Source of the DNA: a virus
Taxonomy: Duplodnaviria; Heunggongvirae; Uroviricota; Caudoviricetes
Virus record (IMG/VR): IMGVR_UViG_2734482773_000006
DNA: 42,888 nt
Strand: one strand, 5' to 3'
In this document: piece after piece, positions 3,573 through 42,888 of the stretch
Layout: each line of letters opens with the position of its first letter
Position numbering within the stretch: position 1 is the stretch's first letter
Translations under genes and position numbers: made by a program
The notes under the pieces: model-generated
What the model saw: only the letters and a program-made list of their open reading frames with translations
Told to the model about the DNA's origin: nothing
The model's database searches: none

Positions 3573-6500
3573 TCAACGAATACTGATGCCGGAAGCGGCT
3601 TTTTTGGTCACAATCACCGTACAGTCGGTGATATTGCCTGCCCCCTGATTGCCTTTCTGGAAAATCTTAAACTCCAGAGTGACGCTTCCCCTGCCACTCG
3701 GCATATCAATAACTGCACTGTAACTACCGGGAATGGCCCCTTTAGTTTCTCTGGATGCGATTAATACGCCGTTTTTGCGAACTTCAAAACCATAACCCGT
3801 GTATCGCGTGCCTCCTGGGTTATTTCCGCTCCCCGGATCGTCATACGCTATACCGTTAAAAATAATGGGCGGAATAATAATCTGGCGGTCAAAGTTATGA
3901 TCATCGCTGATGGTGACTGTAACCGTACCGTTTGGTGTTTCCGTGTTACCCCACGTACCGACTTTTTTCGGGAAGGCTTTTGATACAGCTTTAACGAAAT
4001 CTCCTCTGACCTGGGTCGCCTCCAGCATGCCCTTAATCGTACAGTTCTGGTTAATCGTGACATTGTTGAGCGTTCCTGAGTTCGCATTCACACTGCCACT
4101 GATATCCGCATTTTTCGCCGTCAGTCTCCCGTCTGATGTCAGGGAAAATGCCGGAGGATTACCGCCGCTGGTAATGGTGGGGGCCGTCAGGCGTTTCAGG
4201 AACACTTCATTCATGAATATCTGATCGCCCTGACCAACAAACATCGGCTTTGTGTTGCCATTCGCAGGATTAATCATCGCAATCCTGTCTGCTGCCAGCA
4301 GCACCTGACTCTGCATGCCGTCAGGGGTGTTCTCAATACCGGCACCGATACCCGCAATATAAAGGCGTCCGTCCTGCATCTGCTGCAGCTTCACTGCCCA
4401 CATGCTGTTCAGGTTATTATTTGTATCAACCTGAACCTTCTGTATCTGCTGGATCGCTGCACTCTGGTCTTCCAGTTTCTTATTGACGGTCTGTGTTATT
4501 TCATTGCTGACATCCGTTATGGACGTCCTGATTTCAGTCAGGTCAGGCGCAAGCTGACCGTTATCAATCTGCGTCCACAGCTCCTGAGCCAGATGGGTTT
4601 TCCCTATCTCGCCTTTGAAAAAATCCAGATAGCCTGATGCATCATCACTCGGCTGACCGACAGCCTCCACGAATGCCGATTTGCCAACGGTGTTCACACT
4701 GCGGATATAAAAGTAATAATCATGGCCCGGTTTGATATTGATACTGGCGGCTATCCAGTACAGCCCCGTGCCAAGGTAGCGGGCTGTGGTTTCAACCTGC
4801 CTGATATCGGTAATCCGCGTTTCCGAGAACCAGAACTCAAATTGTACCGTCGGATCATAAACCGCAAGATGCGGCGTGGCGGTTATCTGAAAATAGCCCG
4901 GTGTCAGCTCAATCCGAGACGGCGCTGCCGGTGCGGCAATCCGGAACGATACCGATGCCGGTTCGCCCTGCTGTCCCCACGCATTTACCGCCCGGACAGT
5001 CAGCCTGTAGTTCCCCAGCGCCAGTTGCGTGAAGCGGTATGTGGTTTCCGTCGTCCTGGCCGTACTGACCAGCCGCTCACTGCCATCGTCCGCTGCCACG
5101 GTCAGGCGAAGCAGGAAGCTCACCCCCTTCACCACCTTCGGCGTGTCCCAGCGCGCCAGCACCTGATATTCCCCGCTGTCTGCGGTGACTTCGGCAGTCA
5201 GGTGCTGCACCGCGGGCGGCGTGACGCCATTCACCGTGCCGCTCAGGTCGCCGTCAAAGTGCGCCCCGTTATCCACGATGGCTTCTTTTTCGGGTACATG
5301 CTGCACGGCGGTGATGGCATACGTGCCGTCGTCGTTCTCACGGATACTCACGCAGCGGAACAGGCGCTGGCGCAGCGTCGGCAGCTTCAGCCCCCACACG
5401 CTGTATCCGGCAACGCCGTCAGGAACACGGCTCACTTTTACCTTCACGCCGTCGGTGACGGACTGGACCTCCACGCTGACCGGATTGCCACTTCCGTCAA
5501 CCAGGCTTATCAGCGTGGTACCGGAGGATGGCAGCGTGATTTCACGGTCGAGCGTCAGCGTCCGGGTCTGGCTGTTCACCGCCAGCACGCGCCCGCCGAT
5601 GCTGATACCCGCATAGTCATCATCGCAGATTTCAATGACATCCCCCGGTACATGGCGAAGCCCTTCCGCACCCACGCTGAAGTCCACGGTCTGCGTTTCC
5701 AGCAGTTCCGTTTTAATCAGCCACAGCCCGGCGCGGTGCGCCTGCCCCCGGCTGGTACAGCCAAAGGCATCCATCTTCGTGACGTTACGACCGTAACGGG
5801 CAATGGCCTGAGTATCTTCAACAAGCTCTGTCGCCGTCTCCCAGCCGTTGTTCGGGTCAATCCAGTTCACCTCAACGGCATTATGGCGGTCCTTCAGGGC
5901 GCTGAAGCTGTAGCGGAACGGCGCGCCATCATCCGGCATCACCACATTACTGCGGTTATAGGTCCACGCCTTATCCGACGGTCGGTCCTGCACAAACGTC
6001 AGCGTCTGCCCGTTCCATACCGGCATACAGCGCATCGCCGAGCAGAAATCACTGAGCACATCCCACGCCTTACGCTGTGTGGTCAGGTACGCATTACAGG
6101 TGATGCGCGGCTCCGTGCCGCCAAAGCCGTCCGGCACTGACTGGTCGCAGTACTGGCCGATGACATACAGCGCCCATTTATCTACATCCGCTGCACCAAG
6201 ACGTTTCCCCATGCCGTAGCGCGGATGGGTCAGCATATCCCACATACACCAGGCCATGTTGTTGCTGTATGCTGGCTTAAACGTTCCGTCCCAGATACCG
6301 CTGTATTGCCGCGTCTGCGGGTTATAGTTCGACGGCACCTGCAGAATGCGCCCGCGCAGATGATAATTACGGCTCACCTGCTGGCTGCCGAACTGCTCCG
6401 AATCCACCTGCACGCCGACCAGTGCCGTGTTCGGGTAGCACTGTTTCACATCGATGATTTCGGTGTATGACGACCAGAGCGTTTTGTTCTGCAGCTGGTC

Positions 6501-28813: not shown

Positions 28814-30709
28814 TTAATTATTTTTCTTTAACTTGAAATTTCTTCCCATTGCTAGTGTTCTTCGAAGATTCGAATCATAAGCTGGTTGATAATATCTATC
28901 ATAAAAATCCTTAATTGTCTGATGGTAAGTATCCAGCATCAAACCATAAAACCCCCTAACCTTAAGATAATCCACCAAGGGAAATAAATAATCATCAGTC
29001 TGAACATCAGTATCAATATTATTTTTTTGTTTTTTAACTTCAAATTTGTATAAGTTTAACTCACCCTTATCCATCGTGCATGAAAAAAGGTCGTCAAAAA
29101 TCAAATCAATTTCTGTCATAGGAACTCGTTCTTTTCCAGACATTATAGGTAGAATATCAATACCTAAGAGCGAACCTAATACAAAGTCGTAATGAAGCGA
29201 AATCACTGAGTCATTCGATGTCGAGTTGCCTTTGATAAATACTCTACTTAGTGCCGAGTCAAAAACATTCTCAACTCTCTCTCTCGTCATGTTTGCGACA
29301 TCTACAACTCCCATATCACGAGAAGCTTTTATTGTGATTTCATCTATAAATGCTTTGGAATCTAGTGAATGTAAAAACAACATGAAGTTATCTAACTGTT
29401 CAGAGCATTTAATAGCCACCATAAGATTTTCGTATATATCTTTTTTATACTCAATCGGTAAATTTGCTACCGCAAAAGCAGCATAAAATTCTTGCACTGA
29501 TTTATGCAGAAAAACATACCTATTATTTCCCTCAGGTTGGATAAGGCAAGTTATCTCAATAAGATCATCTATAAAGTTTGATGCATCTTCTTTAAGATAA
29601 CCTTCTGTTTCAATAGCATCTTCAGCATATCTAAGCAACTCCTCTCCCCAAAACTCAAATTTCTCCTCAATCAGTGCGTTATAGCAAATAGCTGAAAAAC
29701 ACAATTTAGCTTTTTCACCAATAATGTTTGATTTTTTCTCGCGCGTATATACTTTTATTTTATCATGCCTTGCATATAAGGTGTCAAAGAGGCTTCGATA
29801 AAACTCTATTATATTATTTGGAATATCATTCATATAAGGATAACAATAATACAAAAGAGTAACTAAAATTGGATTGCAAATAGTTCCCTCAAGTTCTTCT
29901 TTATCACATAGTAAATCCGCCAAGACTTTAAACGAGGCATCACTACTTGAGAATCTGTCATTTTTCGATAAAGAATGAAGAATACAAATCTTATCAGAAA
30001 TATTTAGCTTATCTATAAAAATATTATACACATCAGTAGTATAACATATATCTGTATTTGGTCTCGTTGTTGCGATAATTGGTGTGTTAAAATGATAATG
30101 AATGTTTTTTATTTCATTCATCATCATAGTTCGCTCTTCATGTTTAACCTCATCAAATCCATCCAACATTAAAACGACTCTTTGGGATTGCAGTAATATT
30201 TTCAAGCTATCCTCTGAACACCCCACACCAAATGAATTAAGAATGTCTGCCAGATAAGCAATAATATTTGCATTCTTCACCCTTCTTAATTCAATAAAAA
30301 AAGGCATCCGTTCTGATTTTTTTATTTCCTCGCTAAACAACTTGCGTAAAATAGTACTTTTCCCTTGCCCCGCTATACCGACTATATTTACAATACCATG
30401 AAATGGTAAAGTGACCCCATCTTTTATAACGACCTTGTCTTTATTAGATGCCACCTCAACAGTTAACGGATAATAAATATCATCTAAAAAAATATCATAA
30501 TCAGCGTTGTGCAAAGTTCTCATTTTCAGAGATGGTAGCACATGCTTTCTTAAATAATTTTCTCTTCCGAGGGGATCATTTAATTGTTCGAGTATAACCT
30601 TGCCTTCATCTAGGTCCCTAGCCCAAGGTTTAGAGAGCAATACTTCTGTTATTTTTTCCGCAGCTTTTCCTACTGTGCTATTAATAATAGTCGCAAGAAA
30701 CTCATCCAT
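28814..30709 (-). CDS. NACHT/STAND-family P-loop NTPase (bacterial NLR-like), candidate single-gene anti-phage defence protein
   Basis: ORF track 28814..30766 (650 aa); likely start at internal Met (30709) preceded by GGTGA; Walker A GIAGQGKST (ORF aa 130-138), Walker B VVLMLDGFDE (197-206), TTRP (233-236); visibly AT-rich gene with AT-rich non-coding flanks. Confidence 0.7.
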   Translation of the reverse strand: MDEFLATIINSTVGKAAEKITEVLLSKPWARDLDEGKVILEQLNDPLGRENYLRKHVLPSLKMRTLHNADYDIFLDDIYYPLTVEVASNKDKVVIKDGVTLPFHGIVNIVGIAGQGKSTILRKLFSEEIKKSERMPFFIELRRVKNANIIAYLADILNSFGVGCSEDSLKILLQSQRVVLMLDGFDEVKHEERTMMMNEIKNIHYHFNTPIIATTRPNTDICYTTDVYNIFIDKLNISDKICILHSLSKNDRFSSSDASFKVLADLLCDKEELEGTICNPILVTLLYYCYPYMNDIPNNIIEFYRSLFDTLYARHDKIKVYTREKKSNIIGEKAKLCFSAICYNALIEEKFEFWGEELLRYAEDAIETEGYLKEDASNFIDDLIEITCLIQPEGNNRYVFLHKSVQEFYAAFAVANLPIEYKKDIYENLMVAIKCSEQLDNFMLFLHSLDSKAFIDEITIKASRDMGVVDVANMTRERVENVFDSALSRVFIKGNSTSNDSVISLHYDFVLGSLLGIDILPIMSGKERVPMTEIDLIFDDLFSCTMDKGELNLYKFEVKKQKNNIDTDVQTDDYLFPLVDYLKVRGFYGLMLDTYHQTIKDFYDRYYQPAYDSNLRRTLAMGRNFKLKKNN

Positions 30710-31097
30710 TTTTTCACCACATTCATTAACCAATACGTGGTGCATTCTTACAAGACTCAGTAACAATTGTCAATCATAGGTTTTCGCATGATTGCAAAAC
30801 GCCATAAACAATTGTAGCACCATAATTTTAAACACTATATAATATACAACCTTCCTACAAGCATTCAGTACATCGCTTAATCACAGGGCTTGAATATATA
30901 GTAAGGAATCGATATTAATCACCTCATCTACTTTAAACATCTTACACACCTATAATTTATAATAGTCAACACGAGGTCATCATATTAAACATGCAATTAC
31001 AAACATTCATTTTTATATAAATTTTCATGATTTAACCGTAGGGCGACGGTAATAAATTTCATATACAAGGATTTAAGCTCCCATACGTTTTCTATTA

Positions 31098-32987: not shown

Positions 32988-33533
32988 TCATATTGCCCCC
33001 AGCATGGTGGTGACCATCGCCATCAGTGGACCAGCCAAATCCGGGTCCACACGAAACATCGACACAATGCCTTCACTCATCTCCTTCAGTTTCTGGTGGC
33101 GTGGTGCGTTGAGAATGACAGCCTGTTTTGCCTCACTGAGTTCCTTTTCCATTTCAGCCAGCCGAGCCATGTAGCTATCCTGCTCAACCAGGTGGCCGCG
33201 ATATTCCAGCGGTAGTACCGCCAGAATTGCCGGGGTCAGTTCACGCACGTTATTTCGGTATTTTTCAGAATCGAATTTGTTATCGAGGAAGCGGAACAGC
33301 TTCTGGCGTGCACGGCTGACATCATCAGGGAAATCGATGGTGCCGCCGCCCTGCTCCCGATACTCATTCACAATGAGTGCGGCAACAACATCCTGATTAT
33401 CTGCAGCCGACCAGGCGCGAACGGCATCACGGATTTTTTCGTGGCCTGGCGCCTGTTTTGTTTGAGAACGATTTATCACCGCAGTCGGGCTAAATCCGCT
33501 AGTCTGTTGGTATGTAAGTGGTTGCATAGTCAT
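32988..33533 (-). CDS. YdaT-like protein (CII functional analogue of Rac-type immunity regions)
   Basis: 181-aa ORF just downstream of the cro-like gene; motifs NEYREQGGG and LTPAILAVLPLEYR resemble Rac YdaT as recalled. Confidence 0.55.
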   Translation of the reverse strand: MTMQPLTYQQTSGFSPTAVINRSQTKQAPGHEKIRDAVRAWSAADNQDVVAALIVNEYREQGGGTIDFPDDVSRARQKLFRFLDNKFDSEKYRNNVRELTPAILAVLPLEYRGHLVEQDSYMARLAEMEKELSEAKQAVILNAPRHQKLKEMSEGIVSMFRVDPDLAGPLMAMVTTMLGAI

Positions 33534-33557: not shown

Positions 33558-33785
33558 TTAGGCGGCAGAATTACTCGCGTTAAACAATGGTGCGAGGTCG
33601 GGACGAATATCTGCTGGTTTAATCTTTCCACCAGTGGCTGAGACAATTTTCATTACATAGCGGGCATCAATTCCGCCACCGTGTAGCCAACGCCAAACTG
33701 TGGGTTGGGCTACACCGCATAGATCTGCCAGTCGTTTTTGACTACCTGTAATACTGATTGCGAGTTGAATGGTTTGATTTGTCAT
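33558..33785 (-). CDS. cro: Cro/YdaS-like HTH repressor
   Basis: ORF track 33558..33791 (TTG); probable ATG at third codon; HTH GVAQPTVWRW; divergent from cI. Confidence 0.75.
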   Translation of the reverse strand: MTNQTIQLAISITGSQKRLADLCGVAQPTVWRWLHGGGIDARYVMKIVSATGGKIKPADIRPDLAPLFNASNSAA

Positions 33786-33895
33786 TATCAATTCCTATTG
33801 GTATTGCAATGAATGAATAATAGCAATGCGTATTAATCCAAGCAATAGCAAAACGTGTTTTGACCATCAATACGCAAGCGTATAAATTAAAACTT
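33786..33895. promoter_or_regulatory. Right operator/promoter region (OR, PR, PRM-like) between divergent cro and cI
   Basis: 110-bp divergent intergenic region with repeated (T/A)TAGCAAT / TTGCAAT motifs, also found in the presumed OL region. Confidence 0.5.
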
Positions 33896-34588
33896 ATGAA
33901 AAAAGAAACTCTTGCTGATCGCTTAAACCTAGCGATGGAACAATCTGGAATGTCTCAAGGCGCTCTTGCAAAGGCGTCTGGCGTAGCTCAACCCACAATC
34001 TGGAGACTGACAAGCGGCAACGCTCGCGGCTCAACAAAAATTGTTGAAATAGCTAATGCATTGGGTGTTCGAACAGAATGGCTCTCATCAGGCATAGGCC
34101 CGATGAGAAATGACGGTCAACAATCAGGGAAGCCTGCTGTCAGCCATTCAAAATACTTCAAGATTGACGTTCTTGATATAGAAGTGAGTGCCGGGCCGGG
34201 AGTCATCAACCGTGAGTTTGTAGAAGTTCTACGCTCGGTTGAGTACTCGTTTGACGATGCTCGTCACATGTTCGATGGTAGGAAGGCAGAAAATATCCGC
34301 ATCATTAACGTACGCGGTGACAGCATGTCAGGAACGATCGAACCAGGTGATCTGCTGTTCGTTGATATCACGGTTAAATCTTTCGACGGTGATGGTATCT
34401 ATGCGTTTCTGTATGACGACACCGCCCATGTAAAGCGCCTGCAAATGATGAAGGATAAGCTACTGGTTATCTCTGATAACAAGAGCTACTCACCGTGGGA
34501 CCCGATCGAGAAAGACGAGATGAACCGGGTATTCATATTCGGTAAGGTTATTGGGAGCATGCCGCAGACGTACAGAAAACACGGATAA
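33896..34588 (+). CDS. cI: CI-type prophage repressor (N-terminal HTH, C-terminal S24 LexA-like peptidase domain)
   Basis: ORF track 33860..34588 (TTG); probable ATG at MKKETLADRLN (may be leaderless as lambda cI); HTH GMSQGALAKASGVAQPTIWRL; S24-like GDSM and K residues. Confidence 0.85.
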   Translation: MKKETLADRLNLAMEQSGMSQGALAKASGVAQPTIWRLTSGNARGSTKIVEIANALGVRTEWLSSGIGPMRNDGQQSGKPAVSHSKYFKIDVLDIEVSAGPGVINREFVEVLRSVEYSFDDARHMFDGRKAENIRIINVRGDSMSGTIEPGDLLFVDITVKSFDGDGIYAFLYDDTAHVKRLQMMKDKLLVISDNKSYSPWDPIEKDEMNRVFIFGKVIGSMPQTYRKHG

Positions 34589-34670
34589 TCAGCCGCGTGT
34601 TGATGAGGCTTTTGGGTAATACGCTGAAGAAAATACCTTATAAAAAATAACATTACGGGAAAGGCAAAAA

Positions 34671-34934
34671 ATGAGTAATAAAACACTTGTTAAAAAATCA
34701 AATAACTGTGTCGATGCATACGCCGACGCGTTTGGCTACTCTTCGTTTGGTGACGGCTCTCAGCGCCTAGGTTCAATTTCTTTTTTTCATAATGTAACTG
34801 AATGGCCTGTTGATGAAAGTGACGATGTTGAGAACATAAAGTACAACATTGCAACCATTAGAATGCCCGAAGAATTGATGCTTAAATTGGCTGACTTCAT
34901 TCGCGACCAGCATGACAAAGCTAAAACAAACTAA
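34671..34934 (+). CDS. Hypothetical 87-aa acidic protein, first gene downstream of cI (rexA position)
   Basis: ORF track; same strand as cI, before the terminator at ~35466; no family recognised. Confidence 0.45.
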   Translation: MSNKTLVKKSNNCVDAYADAFGYSSFGDGSQRLGSISFFHNVTEWPVDESDDVENIKYNIATIRMPEELMLKLADFIRDQHDKAKTN

Positions 34935-34946
34935 TCGTAATTAATT

Positions 34947-35390
34947 ATGAAACACGATTATTACGAAGCTCCAAACCTAAATGATAAAATTGCAAAGGCG
35001 GCAAAATCATTTTGTTTGCACTCCAGTGCGTCTTCCCAGCTAGCAGGTATATCTGGAAAAAGATGGGACATGCTACAATCAAGTGGTAGCAGTGGGTCTG
35101 GGAGTGATAACATGCCTGAAAAAGTTGCAAAACTGGAGTCCGATGTTGCTCATATCAAACGAGACGTTGATGAACTTAAAACAGACGTTAAAGCTATCGA
35201 CAAAAATATGATAACTATTCTTGCACGTCTGGACTCTATAAAAGAATCCTTAACAAACAAGCCATCAAGTGATGCTGTCGATAGAAAGATTTCAGACGCA
35301 AAGCTTGCGGTATTGCTTGGTGTTCCAGCAATCATCGCTGCAGGAACAGGACTTTATAAGCTATCAATGTACTTTTTCTTTAGTGCTTAA
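34947..35390 (+). CDS. Hypothetical coiled-coil protein with C-terminal transmembrane anchor (rexB position); probable shorter 92-aa form from 35112
   Basis: ORF track 147 aa; internal ATG at 35112 has GGAG upstream; C-terminal hydrophobic helix AVLLGVPAIIAAGTGLYKLSMYFFF; heptad-like charged region. Confidence 0.45.
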   Translation: MKHDYYEAPNLNDKIAKAAKSFCLHSSASSQLAGISGKRWDMLQSSGSSGSGSDNMPEKVAKLESDVAHIKRDVDELKTDVKAIDKNMITILARLDSIKESLTNKPSSDAVDRKISDAKLAVLLGVPAIIAAGTGLYKLSMYFFFSA

Positions 35391-35465
35391 GAAAATGCTC
35401 GCACCCTTGCATTAGGTAAAGCGATTTTTCATTCCCCATTACCCTCGCTCTTAACCAATCATCTA

Positions 35466-35494
35466 AACCCGGCCACCGTGCCGGGTTTTCTTTT
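35466..35494 (+). terminator. Rho-independent terminator ending the cI-operon transcript
   Basis: Hairpin CCCGGCCACCGTGCCGGG followed by TTTTCTTTT, read by eye. Confidence 0.55.
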
Positions 35495-35589
35495 GCCCTC
35501 CCCTCATCACACACCGTTCAAAAAACCACCACGACCTCACTTCAGTTATCGCTATGCGATGCAAGTCACAAAATTAATTCTTTTTGCTA

Positions 35590-35700
35590 TCAAACATTTA
35601 ATATCAAAACACATCAACTAATAGCAATAAGTATTGATATCACCAATAGCAATAGCTATTATCACCATATCGCAACAACACAACGATACGGCAACCACCT
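35590..35700 (+). promoter_or_regulatory. Putative left operator/promoter (OL/PL)
   Basis: Cluster of ATAGCAAT / TATCACC repeats shared with the cro-cI intergenic region, upstream of the gam-bet-exo operon. Confidence 0.4.
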
Positions 35701-35855
35701 GATTCACCGTTGCGATGACCGCTTAGATCCGCAGCTTGAATTTCAGCAGGCTTCGGGGAGTGCGAGGGATGAAACGGACGCGTGAACGTCGGTGTGACCA
35801 GCTGAAATCAACTCAACATTTCATACCTTAGTCGCTTCAACGAGGCGGCTTAGTT

Positions 35856-36146
35856 ATGACAACCGGCGGCCATCCACCGCCTGAATACGCGCAGAAGTCT
35901 TTATATGTTCAGCAGCCCAGCTTACGGGCAGGAGTTTTTATGGTTCATCAACATTACGGAACGCAGACCGTTAATCGCGGTGCGGTCATGCCAGGAATGC
36001 TGGTCAAACGCAAAGATGGTACCTGGACTGCATCAGCTAATTTACGCGGACGACTTTATCTGCATCGCGGCATTGAGCGCACTTATACCCGTGACTTGCT
36101 CGTGGAAGTTTTTCTCGACGGACGCGGCAACGGTCTGAATCACTAA
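35856..36146 (+). CDS. Hypothetical 96-aa protein, first sizeable ORF of the pL operon
   Basis: ORF track; SD-like GAGGCGG upstream; in frame with gam and separated from it by one TAA codon. Confidence 0.4.
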   Translation: MTTGGHPPPEYAQKSLYVQQPSLRAGVFMVHQHYGTQTVNRGAVMPGMLVKRKDGTWTASANLRGRLYLHRGIERTYTRDLLVEVFLDGRGNGLNH

Positions 36147-36221
36147 TCCCCTTTCCTGTTTTCCGAATCAGCCTGGCATTCCGCGGGCGATTTTTTCACA
36201 GCCATTTTCAGGAGTTCAGCC

Positions 36222-36518
36222 ATGAACGCTTATTACATTCAGGATCGTCTTGAGGCTCAGAGCTGGGCGCGTCACTACCAGCAGATCGCCCGTGAAGAGA
36301 AAGAGGCAGAACTGGCAGACGACATGGAAAAAGGCCTGCCCCAGCACCTGTTTGAATCGCTATGCATCGATCATTTGCAACGCCACGGGGCCAGCAAAAA
36401 AGCCATTACCCGTGCGTTTGATGACGATGTTGAGTTTCAGGAACGCATGGCAGAACACATACGGTACATGGTTGAAACTATTGCCCGCCACCAGGTTGAT
36501 ATTGATTCAGAGGTATAA
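36222..36518 (+). CDS. gam: Gam (RecBCD inhibitor), short GamS form
   Basis: 98 aa, [34 protein letters not shown], lambda GamS. Confidence 0.9.
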
Positions 36519-36523
36519 AACGG

Positions 36524-37309
36524 ATGAGTACAGCACTCGCAACGCTGGCAGGGAAGCTGGCTGAACGTGTCGGCATGGATTCTGTCGACCCACAGGAACT
36601 GATCACCACTCTTCGCCAGACGGCATTTAAAGGTGATGCCAGCGATGCGCAGTTCATCGCATTGTTGATCGTCGCCAACCAGTACGGCCTTAATCCGTGG
36701 ACGAAAGAAATTTACGCCTTCCCTGATAAGCAGAACGGCATCGTTCCGGTGGTGGGCGTTGATGGCTGGTCCCGCATCATCAATGAAAACCAGCAGTTTG
36801 ATGGCATGGACTTTGAGCAGGACAATGAATCCTGTACATGCCGGATTTACCGCAAGGACCGTAATCATCCGATCTGCGTTACCGAATGGATGGATGAATG
36901 CCGCCGCGAACCATTCAAAACTCGCGAAGGCAGAGAAATTACGGGGCCGTGGCAGTCGCATCCCAAACGGATGTTACGGCATAAAGCCATGATTCAGTGT
37001 GCCCGTCTGGCCTTCGGATTTGCTGGTATCTATGACAAGGATGAAGCCGAGCGCATTGTCGAAAATACTGCATACACTGCAGAACGTCAGCCGGAACGCG
37101 ACATCACTCCGGTTAACGATGAAACCATGCAGGAGATTAACACTCTGCTGATCGCCCTGGATAAAACATGGGATGACGACTTATTGCCGCTCTGTTCCCA
37201 GATATTTCGCCGCGACATTCGCGCATCGTCAGAACTGACACAGGCCGAAGCAGTGAAAGCTCTTGGATTCCTGAAACAGAAAGCCACTGAGCAGAAGGTG
37301 GCAGCATGA
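36524..37309 (+). CDS. bet: Bet (Red beta single-strand annealing protein)
   Basis: 261 aa, [48 protein letters not shown], lambda Bet. Confidence 0.95.
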
Positions 37310-37986
37310 CACCGGACATTATCCTGCAGCGTACCGGGATCGACGTGAGAGCTGTCGAACAGGGGGATGATGCATGGCACAAATTACGGCTCGGCGTCAT
37401 CACCGCTTCAGAAGTTCACAACGTGATAGCAAAGCCCCGCTCAGGAAAGAAGTGGCCTGACATGAAAATGTCCTACTTCCACACCCTGCTGGCTGAGGTT
37501 TGCACCGGTGTGGCTCCGGAAGTTAATGCTAAGGCGCTGGCCTGGGGAAAACAGTACGAGAACGACGCCAGAGCCCTGTTTGAGTTTACTTCCGGCGTGA
37601 ATGTTACTGAATCCCCGATCATCTATCGCGACGAAAGTATGCGCACCGCCTGCTCTCCCGATGGTTTATGCAGTGACGGCAACGGCCTTGAACTGAAATG
37701 CCCGTTTACCTCCCGGGATTTCATGAAATTCCGGCTCGGTGGTTTCGAGGCCATAAAGTCAGCTTACATGGCCCAGGTGCAGTACAGCATGTGGGTGACG
37801 CGAAAAGATGCCTGGTACTTTGCCAACTATGACCCACGAATGAAGCGTGAAGGCCTGCATTATGTCGTGGTTGAGCGGGATGAAAATTACATGGCGAGTT
37901 TTGACGAGATGGTGCCGGAGTTCATCGAAAAAATGGACGAGGCACTGGCTGAAATTGGTTTTGTATTTGGGGAGCAATGGCGATGA
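37306..37986 (+). CDS. exo: Exo (Red alpha 5'-3' exonuclease)
   Basis: 226 aa, [40 protein letters not shown], lambda Exo. Confidence 0.95.
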
Positions 37987-38165
37987 AACATCCTCACGAT
38001 AATATCCGCGTAGGCACGATCACTTTCGTCTACTCCGTTACGAAGCGAGGCTGGGTATTTCCCGGCCTTTCTGTTATCCGAAATCCCCTGAAAGCACAGC
38101 GGCTGGCTGAGGAGATAAATAATAAACGGGGAGCTGTATGCACAAAGCATCTCCCGTTCAGTTAA
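37977..38165 (+). CDS. Lambda orf60a-like small protein
   Basis: 62 aa, [30 protein letters not shown]; position after exo as in lambda. Confidence 0.7.
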
Positions 38166-40203: not shown

Positions 40204-40422
40204 ATGTACTTGACACTTCAGGAGTGGAACGCACGCCAGCGACGCCCAAGAAGCCTTGAAACAGTTCGTCGATGGGTACGCGAGTGCAGGATATTCCCTC
40301 CTCCGGTTAAGGATGGAAGAGAGTATCTGTTCCACGAATCAGCGGTAAAGGTTGACTTAAATCGACCAGTAACAGGTAGCCTTTTGAAGAGGATCAGAAA
40401 TGGGAAGAAGGCGAAGTCATGA
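40204..40422 (+). CDS. xis: Excisionase Xis
   Basis: 72 aa, MYLTLQEWNARQRRPRSLETVRRWVRECRIFPPPVKDGREYLFHESAV, lambda Xis. Confidence 0.95.
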   Translation: MYLTLQEWNARQRRPRSLETVRRWVRECRIFPPPVKDGREYLFHESAVKVDLNRPVTGSLLKRIRNGKKAKS

Positions 40423-41470
40423 GCGCCGGGATTTACCCCCTAACCTTTATATAAGAAACAATGGATATTACTGCTACAGGGACCCAAGGACGGGTAAAGA
40501 GTTTGGATTAGGCAGAGACAGGCGAATCGCAATCACTGAAGCCATACAGGCCAACATTGAGTTATTTTCAGGACACAAACACAAGCCTCTGACAGCGAGA
40601 ATCAACAGTGATAATTCCGTTACGTTACATTCATGGCTTGATCGCTACGAAAAAATCCTGGCCAGCAGAGGAATCAAGCAGAAGACACTCATAAATTACA
40701 TGAGCAAAATTAAAGCAATAAGGAGGGGTCTGCCTGATGCTCCACTTGAAGACATCACCACAAAAGAAATTGCGGCAATGCTCAATGGATACATAGACGA
40801 GGGCAAGGCGGCGTCAGCCAAGTTAATCAGATCAACACTGAGCGATGCATTCCGAGAGGCAATAGCTGAAGGCCATATAACAACAAACCCTGTCGCTGCC
40901 ACTCGCGCAGCAAAATCAGAGGTAAGGAGATCAAGACTTACGGCTGACGAATACCTGAAAATTTATCAAGCAGCAGAATCATCACCATGTTGGCTCAGAC
41001 TTGCAATGGAACTGGCTGTTGTTACCGGGCAACGAGTTGGTGATTTATGCGAAATGAAGTGGTCTGATATCGTAGATGGATATCTTTATGTCGAGCAAAG
41101 CAAAACAGGCGTAAAAATTGCCATCCCAACAGCATTGCATGTTGATGCTCTCGGAATATCAATGAAGGAAACACTTGATAAATGCAAAGAGATTCTTGGC
41201 GGAGAAACCATAATTGCATCTACTCGTCGCGAACCGCTTTCATCCGGCACAGTATCAAGGTATTTTATGCGCGCACGAAAAGCATCAGGTCTTTCCTTCG
41301 AAGGGGATCCGCCTACCTTTCACGAGTTGCGCAGTTTGTCTGCAAGACTCTATGAGAAGCAGATAAGCGATAAGTTTGCTCAACATCTTCTCGGGCATAA
41401 GTCGGACACCATGGCATCACAGTATCGTGATGACAGAGGCAGGGAGTGGGACAAAATTGAAATCAAATAA
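40400..41470 (+). CDS. int: Integrase Int (tyrosine recombinase)
   Basis: 356 aa, MGRRRSHERRDLPPNLYIRNNGYYCYRDPRTGKEFGLGRDRRIAI, lambda Int; overlaps xis. Confidence 0.95.
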   Translation: MGRRRSHERRDLPPNLYIRNNGYYCYRDPRTGKEFGLGRDRRIAITEAIQANIELFSGHKHKPLTARINSDNSVTLHSWLDRYEKILASRGIKQKTLINYMSKIKAIRRGLPDAPLEDITTKEIAAMLNGYIDEGKAASAKLIRSTLSDAFREAIAEGHITTNPVAATRAAKSEVRRSRLTADEYLKIYQAAESSPCWLRLAMELAVVTGQRVGDLCEMKWSDIVDGYLYVEQSKTGVKIAIPTALHVDALGISMKETLDKCKEILGGETIIASTRREPLSSGTVSRYFMRARKASGLSFEGDPPTFHELRSLSARLYEKQISDKFAQHLLGHKSDTMASQYRDDRGREWDKIEIK

Positions 41471-41604: not shown

Positions 41605-42888
41605 GTGAACACATTTTCAGTTTCCCGTCTGGCGCTGGCATTGGCTTTTGGCGTGACGCTGACCGCCTGTAGCTCAACCCCGCCCGATCAACGTCCTTCT
41701 GATCAAACCGCGCCTGGTACCTCTTCTCGCCCGATTCTGTCGGCAAAAGAAGCGCAGAATTTCGATGCTCAACACTATTTTGCATCCCTGACACCAGGTG
41801 CTGCAGCGTGGAATCCTTCCCCGATTACCCTGCCTGCGCAACCTGACTTTGTTGTCGGCCCGGCGGGCACTCAAGGTGTAACGCATACCACGATTCAGGC
41901 GGCGGTAGATGCGGCAATTATCAAGCGTACCAACAAGCGCCAGTATATTGCCGTGATGCCTGGTGAGTATCAGGGAACGGTATATGTCCCTGCCGCTCCG
42001 GGTGGAATTACTCTGTACGGTACAGGTGAAAAACCGATTGATGTGAAGATTGGGCTTTCCCTTGATGGTGGCATGAGCCCTGCCGACTGGCGTCACGACG
42101 TCAACCCGCGCGGCAAATATATGCCAGGTAAACCAGCGTGGTATATGTACGATAGCTGCCAGAGCAAACGCAGCGACAGTATCGGTGTTCTCTGCTCTGC
42201 GGTCTTCTGGTCACAAAACAATGGCCTGCAACTGCAAAATCTGACCATCGAAAACACGCTGGGCGATAGCGTAGATGCAGGTAACCATCCGGCGGTGGCA
42301 CTGCGTACTGATGGTGACCAGGTACAGATTAACAACGTTAACATTCTCGGTCGTCAGAACACCTTCTTTGTCACCAACAGCGGTGTGCAGAACCGTCTGG
42401 AAACCAACCGTCAGCCGCGTACGCTGGTGACCAACAGCTACATTGAAGGGGATGTGGATATCGTTTCTGGTCGCGGCGCAGTGGTGTTCGATAACACCGA
42501 ATTCCGCGTGGTGAACTCACGTACTCAGCAAGAAGCGTATGTGTTTGCACCGGCTACGCTGTCCAACATTTACTACGGTTTCCTCGCCGTAAACAGCCGT
42601 TTCAATGCTTTCGGTGATGGTGTGGCGCAACTGGGCCGCTCGCTGGATGTTGATGCCAATACCAACGGTCAGGTGGTGATCCGTGATAGCGCCATCAACG
42701 AAGGTTTTAACACGGCGAAACCGTGGGCCGATGCGGTGATCTCTAATCGTCCGTTTGCGGGTAATACCGGCAGCGTAGATGATAACGACGAAATACAGCG
42801 CAATCTGAATGACACTAACTACAACCGCATGTGGGAATACAATAACCGCGGCGTGGGTAGTAAAGTGGTTGCAGAGGCGAAGAAGTAA
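41605..42888 (+). CDS. ybhC: Host YbhC-like outer membrane lipoprotein (pectinesterase-fold acyl-CoA thioesterase); chromosomal gene flanking lambda attB
   Basis: 427-aa ORF with lipoprotein signal LTAC; visibly different composition from the prophage; known neighbour of attB-lambda in E. coli. Confidence 0.85.
   Translation: MNTFSVSRLALALAFGVTLTACSSTPPDQRPSDQTAPGTSSRPILSAKEAQNFDAQHYFASLTPGAAAWNPSPITLPAQPDFVVGPAGTQGVTHTTIQAAVDAAIIKRTNKRQYIAVMPGEYQGTVYVPAAPGGITLYGTGEKPIDVKIGLSLDGGMSPADWRHDVNPRGKYMPGKPAWYMYDSCQSKRSDSIGVLCSAVFWSQNNGLQLQNLTIENTLGDSVDAGNHPAVALRTDGDQVQINNVNILGRQNTFFVTNSGVQNRLETNRQPRTLVTNSYIEGDVDIVSGRGAVVFDNTEFRVVNSRTQQEAYVFAPATLSNIYYGFLAVNSRFNAFGDGVAQLGRSLDVDANTNGQVVIRDSAINEGFNTAKPWADAVISNRPFAGNTGSVDDNDEIQRNLNDTNYNRMWEYNNRGVGSKVVAEAKK

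Follow-up and report, generated by a model that had tools for sequence, protein, structure and literature searches.

A modular two-gene cassette behind the cI repressor of a lambdoid prophage as a candidate phage-exclusion or abortive-infection module

We analyzed a two-gene cassette, orf87-orf147, in a 42,888-nucleotide (nt) stretch of DNA from a lambdoid prophage (IMG/VR record IMGVR_UViG_2734482773_000006, Caudoviricetes; the whole stretch is hereafter called the window), where it lies between the cI repressor gene and the left operators and leftward promoter (OL/pL). The first gene encodes a small acidic protein and the second a coiled-coil protein that ends in a membrane helix. We propose that the pair forms a phage-exclusion or abortive-infection module expressed in the lysogen, RexAB-like in position and logic only, a reading to which we give a probability of about 0.45, just short of even. 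This role is favored over others because the cassette occupies a repressor-operon position that corresponds to the rexAB, bstA and sieA slots, and because its heads, partners and membrane tails are shuffled in a conflict-like manner.

On the + strand, the order of elements is cI, orf87, orf147, an intrinsic terminator and OL/pL, which is the rexAB slot (Table 1). A sequence-only reading that preceded this work had described two open reading frames (ORFs) that follow cI on the same strand ahead of a strong terminator, and had assigned them to the rexAB position. Both statements hold: the coordinates agree, the pair is co-oriented with cI and flanked by operators, and the terminator follows it as a 9-bp stem (35465-35488) trailed by TCTTTTG that folds at -15.1 kcal/mol (z-score -3.6; none of 200 shuffled sequences was as stable). 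Operator-like sites of the type AATAGCAATNNNTATT (at most 2 mismatches) number 10 in the 42.9-kb window, where 1.2 would be expected, and all 10 fall either at 33750-33859, on the cro/cI side (right operator, OR), or at 35620-35660 (OL). Since operators stand on both sides, the cassette lies inside the immunity region, from cI to OL/pL, as rexAB does in lambda; positions 33558-38000 as a whole are a lambdoid immunity and early-left region. A simple scan of the + strand found neither a terminator-like nor a promoter-like site in the gap between cI and orf87 (34589-34670), and a promoter of the cassette's own was rejected on this ground. Its place in the repressor operon thus predicts that the cassette is made in the lysogen.

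Spread, mobility and modular anatomy of the pair

Compared with diverged prophage copies, the ratio of nonsynonymous to synonymous substitution rates (dN/dS) was 0.05-0.16 for orf87; in orf147 it was 0.11-0.13 over codons 56-147 and 0.15-0.57 over codons 1-55, where dS ranged from 0.45 to 2.6 and was saturated at the upper end. Because these ratios are low, and below 1 for the orf147 head, the remaining coil-plus-helix module and orf87 alike, we regard both ORFs as real genes under purifying selection and not as chance ORFs. Of 5426 complete E. coli genomes, 151 carry the pair at 99% identity or more and a further 54 at 80-90%, together about 4% (205/5426); these copies are always chromosomal and always annotated as two hypothetical proteins. 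The exact orf87 protein occurs in at least 1000 public contigs and the exact orf147 protein in 204 (E. coli, Salmonella and E. albertii), with relatives in prophages of Salmonella, E. albertii, Serratia, Pantoea, Erwinia, Klebsiella, Enterobacter and Rahnella. When 1.84 billion representative proteins were scanned with orf147, just 10 matched at an expectation value (E) below 1e-30 and 53 below 1e-10, which indicates that its close family is small; wherever the source organism is named, it is enterobacterial. The family is seen in prophage or viral contigs and at a few chromosomal sites, and no coil-plus-helix module was found on plasmids. Among cultured phages, type-A-like versions of both genes were found in a single record, Salmonella phage UPF_BP1 (types are defined below); its second gene is 35% identical overall to orf147 and differs in its membrane tail. 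A weak partial match in the coil region came from three unannotated Enterobacter phage records.

To describe the anatomy of the cassette, we gathered loci from genomes (7) and viruses (79) and tabulated the gene context in 74 non-redundant ones. In nearly all of these, the coil gene is second in a tightly coupled pair, and wherever the partner type is recognized, a gap of -34 to +15 nt separates partner and coil gene. Four such types were distinguished: A, the orf87-like proteins (phrog_4231); B, of 136-167 amino acids (aa; phrog_5893); C, of 93-106 aa (phrog_12039); and D, of 119 aa (phrog_4293). All four PHROG families are of unknown function, and HHalign found no relationship between partners A and B or A and C (probability at most 0.2%), although the alignments are shallow and distant homology is possible. 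The partner of one further locus (L061) resembles orf87 by eye (..YADS.F...ATI..), a likeness that was not confirmed.

The gene directly upstream of the pair belongs to the cI repressor cluster in 56 of the 74 loci and to the mnt/Arc-like cluster in 4; these labels denote similarity clusters, for which Pfam confirmed a helix-turn-helix (HTH) or Arc domain in the three representatives scanned. Type-A pairs follow cI genes that belong to two immunity types (100% and 82% identical, and accompanied by different cro genes), and in P22-like UPF_BP1, L031 and L063 they follow mnt; a type-B pair stands behind mnt in L088. In the P22-like phages, the type-A pair stands where orf59a and sieA are located in P22 (PMC10883804). 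These arrangements indicate that the pair moves as a unit across repressor contexts. A terminator-like hairpin lies within 220 nt downstream in 45 of 59 distinct loci, often with a CCCGGCC-loop-GCCGGG stem. We also observed that a near-identical stem (CCCGGCC-ACCGNG-CCGGG, followed by a T-run) follows the coil genes in cassettes of different types, in relatives mostly 0-7 nt past the stop codon and in the window 74 nt past it; this shared stem may travel with the cassette.

The type of the orf147 head tracks the type of the upstream partner. Partner and head clusters pair nearly one-to-one (A/A in 23 loci, C/C in 17, B3/3 in 7 and D/4 in 3), with two exceptions (L085 and L088), which suggests that the partner and the head interact. 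The type-A head and partner are joined to a different membrane tail in L063, P0105 and UPF_BP1, pointing to recombination within the coil. Headless copies (such as L004 and L006 in the Pantoea chromosome) have no partner and begin directly at a GGAG site and an ATG. The headless Pantoea genes lie beside an AraC-like regulator; L004 and L006 have one such gene (4995-5297), and in L005 (Candidatus Pantoea communis, 4481-5220) two, of 99 and 136 aa, stand in tandem. At a different moron site (L008, L065 and L086, at about 4547-5291), a type-D pair is found not behind a repressor but immediately after a run of genes that look like phage tail genes; it consists of a 119-aa partner with several Cys-x-x-Cys motifs and a 137-aa coil protein.

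Membrane architecture and predicted nested products

The orf147 protein consists of a head (residues 1-55), a Ser/Gly linker, a coiled coil of seven perfect heptads whose a and d positions are 100% hydrophobic (residues 56-104), an NKPS hinge and a membrane helix. The latter (residues 118-136) is the sole hydrophobic stretch and ends about 10 residues from the C-terminus; within its region L124, P127, G133, T134 and K138 are invariant among homologues. As no signal peptide is present, the simplest topology would be a tail-anchored protein with its bulk in the cytoplasm. The conserved part of the protein is its last ~92 residues, whereas the N-termini vary among homologues of 90-180 aa. A looser set within the same length range shares the plan of a head, a Gly-rich linker, a coil opening with 'MLEARVAKLESDV..IK.D' and a membrane tail, and at least four alternative C-terminal membrane tails are found on the same coil start. 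The protein matches phrog_3556 (E 1.7e-58, profile positions 128-267 of 276), a family of unknown function.

Its partner, orf87, has an isoelectric point (pI) of 4.96, with 14 acidic and 10 basic residues and no hydrophobic segment. Its AlphaFold2 model (mean predicted local distance difference test score, pLDDT, 78) shows a sheet of three or four strands and, after it, a C-terminal helix, and the protein matches phrog_4231 almost end to end (E 7e-54, profile positions 1-87 of 88), again a family of unknown function. On one E. coli contig (P0070), we found a 134-aa protein in which the first ~57 residues of orf87 are joined to a coil-KKPS-membrane-helix tail. The junction lies at the stretch 'VENIK', common to both genes, and the protein looks like a one-off deletion between them and not a functional fusion.

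The coil of orf147 is preceded by an internal ribosome-binding site (GGGAG) and, after a 7-nt spacer, an in-frame ATG at 35112. This methionine codon is ATG in 26 of 27 distinct family sequences (the remaining one has valine, GTG), and a GGAGG lies 4-10 nt, mostly 7, before the ATG in 21 of the 26. Synonymous resampling of the same sequences, which used an approximate table of E. coli codon usage, gave on average 4.4 such sequences out of 26, and never more than 10. The rare glycine codon GGA makes up 32% of the glycine codons at the site. We conclude from this conservation that the Gly-Gly of the linker is in part a ribosome-binding site that is itself translated and is maintained by selection. 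The long frame, for its part, starts at ATG 34947, 12 nt past the orf87 stop codon, without a ribosome-binding site of its own (other types have ATGA-type overlaps), so the long form is probably coupled translationally to the partner gene. Together, the conserved internal start and the coding signal in the head argue that both a long (147-aa) and a short (92-aa) product are made.

At the level of the proteins, the sequence-only reading had named an 87-aa acidic protein, a coiled coil with a single C-terminal transmembrane helix, and an ATG at 35112 preceded by a Shine-Dalgarno sequence, and the features described above agree with it on each point. It had, however, offered 92 and 147 aa as alternatives. 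Both ATGs are present, and the evidence favors two products over a choice between them.

Proposed function and competing explanations

Neither protein belongs to a characterized family. In Pfam scans at E values up to 1, orf87 had no match and orf147 matched only coiled-coil families below threshold; NCBIfam and PDB sequence searches with both proteins gave nothing beyond coiled-coil noise. Among the 5027 models of PADLOC-DB v2, orf87 matched none and orf147 matched only the coiled-coil parts of PbeC, LmuB and JetC, at E of 0.004 or more, and no known toxin or antitoxin family was matched by either protein in Pfam or NCBIfam. Pfam contains models of RexA and RexB, so these searches are consistent with the earlier statement that the coil protein resembles neither. 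All public names are 'hypothetical' except one, an automatic 'Lpp' that reflects coiled-coil similarity only. Literature searches by accession, locus tag, PHROG identifier and concept returned no description of either protein, and the two RefSeq accessions are not listed in the DefensePredictor supplements. Profile searches, a check that had been suggested, thus led to no characterized family in Pfam, NCBIfam, PADLOC or PHROG, in keeping with the view that the module is undescribed. On these comparisons, the cassette belongs to uncharacterized PHROG families only and is not RexAB, SieA, XhlA, a PADLOC system or a known toxin-antitoxin system.

A mosaic hot spot is known between cI and N, where lambda has rexAB and BTP1 has bstA, and the genes there probably share the repressor promoter (PMC8585504). 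We found that phages with the same or similar flanks as the window hold other genes between cI and pL. In phage 4A7, whose cI, cro and cII-like genes have the same lengths as those of the window and are ~97% identical over the matched parts, the slot (L091 3566-4982) holds the PADLOC candidate system PDC-M11A/B (E 2.9e-133 and 6.8e-52). The slot of PhiR70_1 (L089 3598-5120) holds three hypothetical genes, that of mEp332 (L090 3242-4279) a 345-aa protein named 'T2SS GspM containing', and that of 2B8 (L092 3345-4202) a NYN-domain protein.

We propose the following sequence of events for an exclusion or abortive-infection module. Transcription from the promoter for repressor maintenance (pRM) would continue past cI into the cassette. 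Translation of orf87 would be coupled to that of the long orf147 form, the two proteins would bind each other via the head, and the 92-aa short form would be initiated independently at 35112. Because the two forms share the coil and the helix, they could co-assemble in the inner membrane, with their bulk in the cytoplasm. The partner and head would then act as the specificity or sensor part, and the coil-helix oligomer as the membrane effector. Upon superinfection, a phage cue would alter the state of this assembly, with the result that the membrane is compromised (abortive infection) or, alternatively, that DNA entry or early development is blocked (exclusion). Such a logic would be analogous to that of RexA/RexB, and the isoform control to that of S107/S105 and SieB/Esc, with homology to none of them. 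A broader version of this proposal seems to us possible but doubtful: the cassette may represent a previously unrecognized, modular class of prophage immunity in Enterobacterales, in which a tail-anchored coil effector exists as two nested isoforms, an exchangeable head docks an exchangeable sensor partner, and heads, partners and tails are shuffled behind cI or Mnt. The ratio of long to short form would here gate membrane damage, as in a holin/antiholin-like switch put to use in defense.

Several points weigh against a defensive role of this kind. Expression in the lysogen and a phage phenotype are deduced from position, and the interaction of orf87 with the head from co-variation; head cluster 2 is partly held together by its low-complexity glycine linker. 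The loci behind the ribosome-binding-site and co-variation tests are phylogenetically related and the codon usage table was approximate, so these statistics are indicative and not exact. The AlphaFold2 model of orf147, with helices at residues 56-104 and 109-146, is of low confidence (pLDDT 56). The PADLOC search found no similarity to validated defense proteins, only coiled-coil noise, and the cargo of the slot need not all be defensive. Finally, a tail-anchored protein that faces the cytoplasm would be an unusual design for blocking DNA injection.

The alternative that fares best, although we consider it unlikely, is a non-defensive role in lysogenic conversion or host physiology, in which orf147 would be a tail-anchored scaffold for envelope stress tolerance or for tethering its partner. 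The tail-anchored E. coli proteins ElaB and YqjD would be the model for such a role, and it would suit a position predicted to be expressed in the lysogen, a tail-anchored coiled-coil architecture, the automatic name 'Lpp' and the lack of a defense-domain signature. Neither DUF883 (ElaB/YqjD) nor any envelope family was matched in Pfam, however, and the absence of the family from plasmids, with all finds in prophage or viral contigs or at a few chromosomal positions, speaks against it. So do the shuffling of heads, partners and tails, which is typical of conflict systems, and the presence of RexAB, BstA and a PADLOC candidate system in the same slot of related phages.

A toxin-antitoxin-like addiction or stabilization module, in which the coil-helix protein would be a membrane toxin neutralized by orf87, stabilizing the prophage or killing cured cells, strikes us as improbable. 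Both the order and the size of the genes would suit it, with the small acidic protein first, as in type II systems, and tightly coupled to the membrane protein, and the partner co-varies with the head of that protein. The neighboring cro and cII genes even belong to the Pfam YdaS and YdaT 'toxin' families, which shows how blurred such labels are. By contrast, the headless module that stands without a partner in the Pantoea chromosome is hard to square with an obligate toxin, neither protein matches a known toxin or antitoxin family, and the strong diversification of partners and heads fits an arms race better than simple neutralization. This explanation also overlaps with abortive infection, since many such systems are toxin-antitoxin-like.

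Superinfection exclusion at the step of DNA entry, similar to P22 SieA or HK97 gp15, would require orf147 to hinder the injection conduit without killing the cell, with orf87 as an accessory, and we see only a small chance of this. We take the order in P22 relative to gene 16 to be mnt, sieA and gene 16. The pair stands exactly at this sieA site in P22-like phages, between mnt and gene 16 (P22 gene content, PMC10883804), the orf147 product is a predicted inner-membrane protein, and the type-D pair of L008 and L086, placed after presumed tail genes, recalls the HK97 gp15 moron. Yet a lone C-terminal helix followed by only ~10 residues, in a protein that lacks a signal peptide, would leave almost nothing in the periplasm, the three membrane helices and the FxRYPxEAxxFNK motif of SieA are absent, and a cytoplasmic partner with a variable cytoplasmic head suggests intracellular sensing. 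Very improbable, lastly, is the view that the 92-aa protein is the only product, the upstream 55 codons being untranslated leader and the Gly-rich 'linker' merely a ribosome-binding site: many gene callers do annotate 90-93-aa versions, and the internal site is strong while ATG 34947 has no such site of its own, but the head shows a coding signal (dN/dS 0.15-0.57) in a frame that is open in all type-A variants examined, heads of other types (40-85 residues) are conserved as protein, the long ORF abuts or overlaps the partner stop codon in all types, and head type tracks partner type.

If the exclusion or abortive-infection reading is right, the cassette is a compact two-gene defense family of less than 750 bp and of unusual design: the coil is tail-anchored, the isoforms are nested, and sensor heads and partners can be swapped. 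The family would then be a tractable relative for the RexAB problem, in which the gating of the membrane effector by the cytoplasmic sensor is poorly understood (PMC8585504). If it has no phage phenotype, it is still a widespread membrane protein pair of E. coli and Salmonella, presumably expressed in the lysogen. As a search rule, examining the genes that come first behind cI or mnt, ahead of the terminator, is a productive way to discover accessory functions of prophages.

Surrounding genes and relation to known systems

Table 1. Features of the cassette and its immunity region (window coordinates)
Feature	Position	Strand	Basis or remark
cro-like gene	33558-33791	-	Pfam YdaS/P22_Cro-type HTH; divergent from cI
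OR-like operator cluster in the gap between the cro-like gene and cI	33784-33859	.	AATAGCAATNNNTATT-type sites (matches at 33750-33859)
pRM-like promoter, TTGACC-17-TAAATT	33860-33888	+	promoter scan; 7 nt upstream of the cI ATG
cI repressor (HTH and S24 peptidase)	33896-34588	+	Peptidase_S24 1.5e-18, HTH_3 1.5e-6
orf87, partner type A, small acidic soluble protein	34671-34934	+	87 aa; phrog_4231
orf147, predicted long form: head, Ser/Gly linker, coiled coil, C-terminal membrane helix	34947-35390	+	147 aa
Internal ribosome-binding site and start	35100-35114	+	GGGAG 35100-35104, 7-nt spacer, in-frame ATG 35112-35114
Predicted short form, 92 aa: coiled coil and membrane helix	35112-35390	+	conserved across Enterobacterales homologues; headless Pantoea gene
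Membrane helix codons	35298-35354	+	residues 118-136, AKLAVLLGVPAIIAAGTGL; Kyte-Doolittle 19-residue maximum 1.8
Intrinsic terminator closing the cI-orf87-orf147 unit	35465-35496	+	terminator scan and fold
OL-like operators overlapping the pL-like promoter	35620-35662	+	operator matches and promoter scan

For cI, we adopted the ATG at 33896 given by RefSeq for an identical locus, as opposed to the TTG at 33860 in the mechanical ORF list; with this start, the mRNA from the pRM-like site would be leaderless or nearly so, as is that from pRM of lambda. The pL-like promoter (TTGATA-17-TATTAT, 35634-35662) is directed into kil/gam/bet/exo. No N-like ORF was found between it and kil (35663-35940), nor does RefSeq give one at the identical locus. 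A put-like antiterminator RNA after pL was rejected, as the 203-nt leader folds no better than shuffled sequences (z-score -0.70), and Rfam had no match anywhere in the window. The cro-like gene matches Pfam YdaS_toxin (1e-14) and the gene in the cII position (32988-33533, - strand) matches YdaT_toxin (2.4e-29); these names derive from the Rac prophage, and the copies in the window occupy ordinary cro and cII positions. Past the replication genes, ~340 bp beyond a truncated ren gene, a 650-aa ORF (28814-30766, - strand) encodes a NACHT/NB-ARC-type nucleoside triphosphatase domain (Pfam NACHT, 3e-11). RefSeq names the identical gene 'NACHT domain-containing protein', PADLOC gave no match, and the ORF may be a second defense cargo of the same prophage, similar to nucleotide-binding leucine-rich repeat (NLR) proteins. 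A 356-aa ORF (40400-41470, + strand) has the length and relative position of the integrase annotated in sibling phages, and at the right end of the window a pectinesterase-family ORF (41605-42888, + strand; Pfam 1.2e-13) looks like the host gene ybhC. The latter suggests that the prophage is integrated at or close to the lambda attachment site and that the right end of the window is chromosome.

The closest parallel to the cassette is RexA/RexB of lambda, which causes abortive infection with loss of membrane potential upon superinfection. Both systems lie in the cI-OL slot on the strand of cI and are closed by a terminator, and both consist of two genes, one with a soluble and one with an inner-membrane product. 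In the Rex system, moreover, rexB is separately expressed from its own promoter (PMC8585504), and the internal translation start of orf147 would achieve a similar separation. The resemblance does not extend to sequence, as Pfam families, RexA and RexB included, gave no match beyond subthreshold coiled-coil hits, nor to architecture: RexB has four membrane helices and orf147 a single C-terminal one along with a coiled coil and a variable head, and the soluble protein has 87 aa as compared with ~279 for RexA.

With SieA of P22, the cassette shares the position after mnt in P22-like phages (UPF_BP1) and a small inner-membrane protein encoded by a prophage. SieA, however, spans the membrane with three helices and carries the conserved motif FxRYPxEAxxFNK (PMC10883804). 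We rejected identity with this one-gene system since the present one has two genes, a coiled coil and one hydrophobic segment (118-136), and lacks the motif.

Nested products are a feature of the S107/S105 holin-antiholin system and of SieB-Esc in P22 and lambda, where one frame with two starts yields a long and a short membrane protein that share an oligomerizing part, and where the isoforms set or block membrane or abortive activity. The conserved internal ribosome-binding site and ATG of orf147 predict two products from one membrane-protein gene. Unlike those of gene S, its starts are 55 codons apart and not 2, and the gene lies outside a lysis cassette and has no Pfam match. A holin was rejected because the locus is wrong (the immunity region from cI to OL, not a lysis cassette with an endolysin) and the tail is short and uncharged. 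The 92-aa form has the same architecture as XhlA (PF10779; phrog_1193, 'hemolysin'), which occurs in lysis cassettes of Gram-positive phages and not, as here, in a repressor operon. We rejected membership in this family as well: orf147 matches it far below the cut-off (Pfam E 0.053, 14.1 bits against a gathering threshold of 34.7; phrog_1193 E 1.3e-4), and generic coiled-coil families match as often or more (6 of 39 family members match XhlA at E up to 0.01, best 2.4e-5, and 14 of 39 match FlaC).

The same two-gene, repressor-adjacent plan is found in mycobacteriophage Sbash, whose gp30/gp31 are a prophage-expressed defense pair of one cytoplasmic and one membrane protein, although hosts and sequences are unrelated. 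In summary, repressor-linked accessory or exclusion cassettes of prophages are known as a kind, and it is the architecture of this pair that is distinctive; should a phenotype be found, the cassette may define a new class of system.

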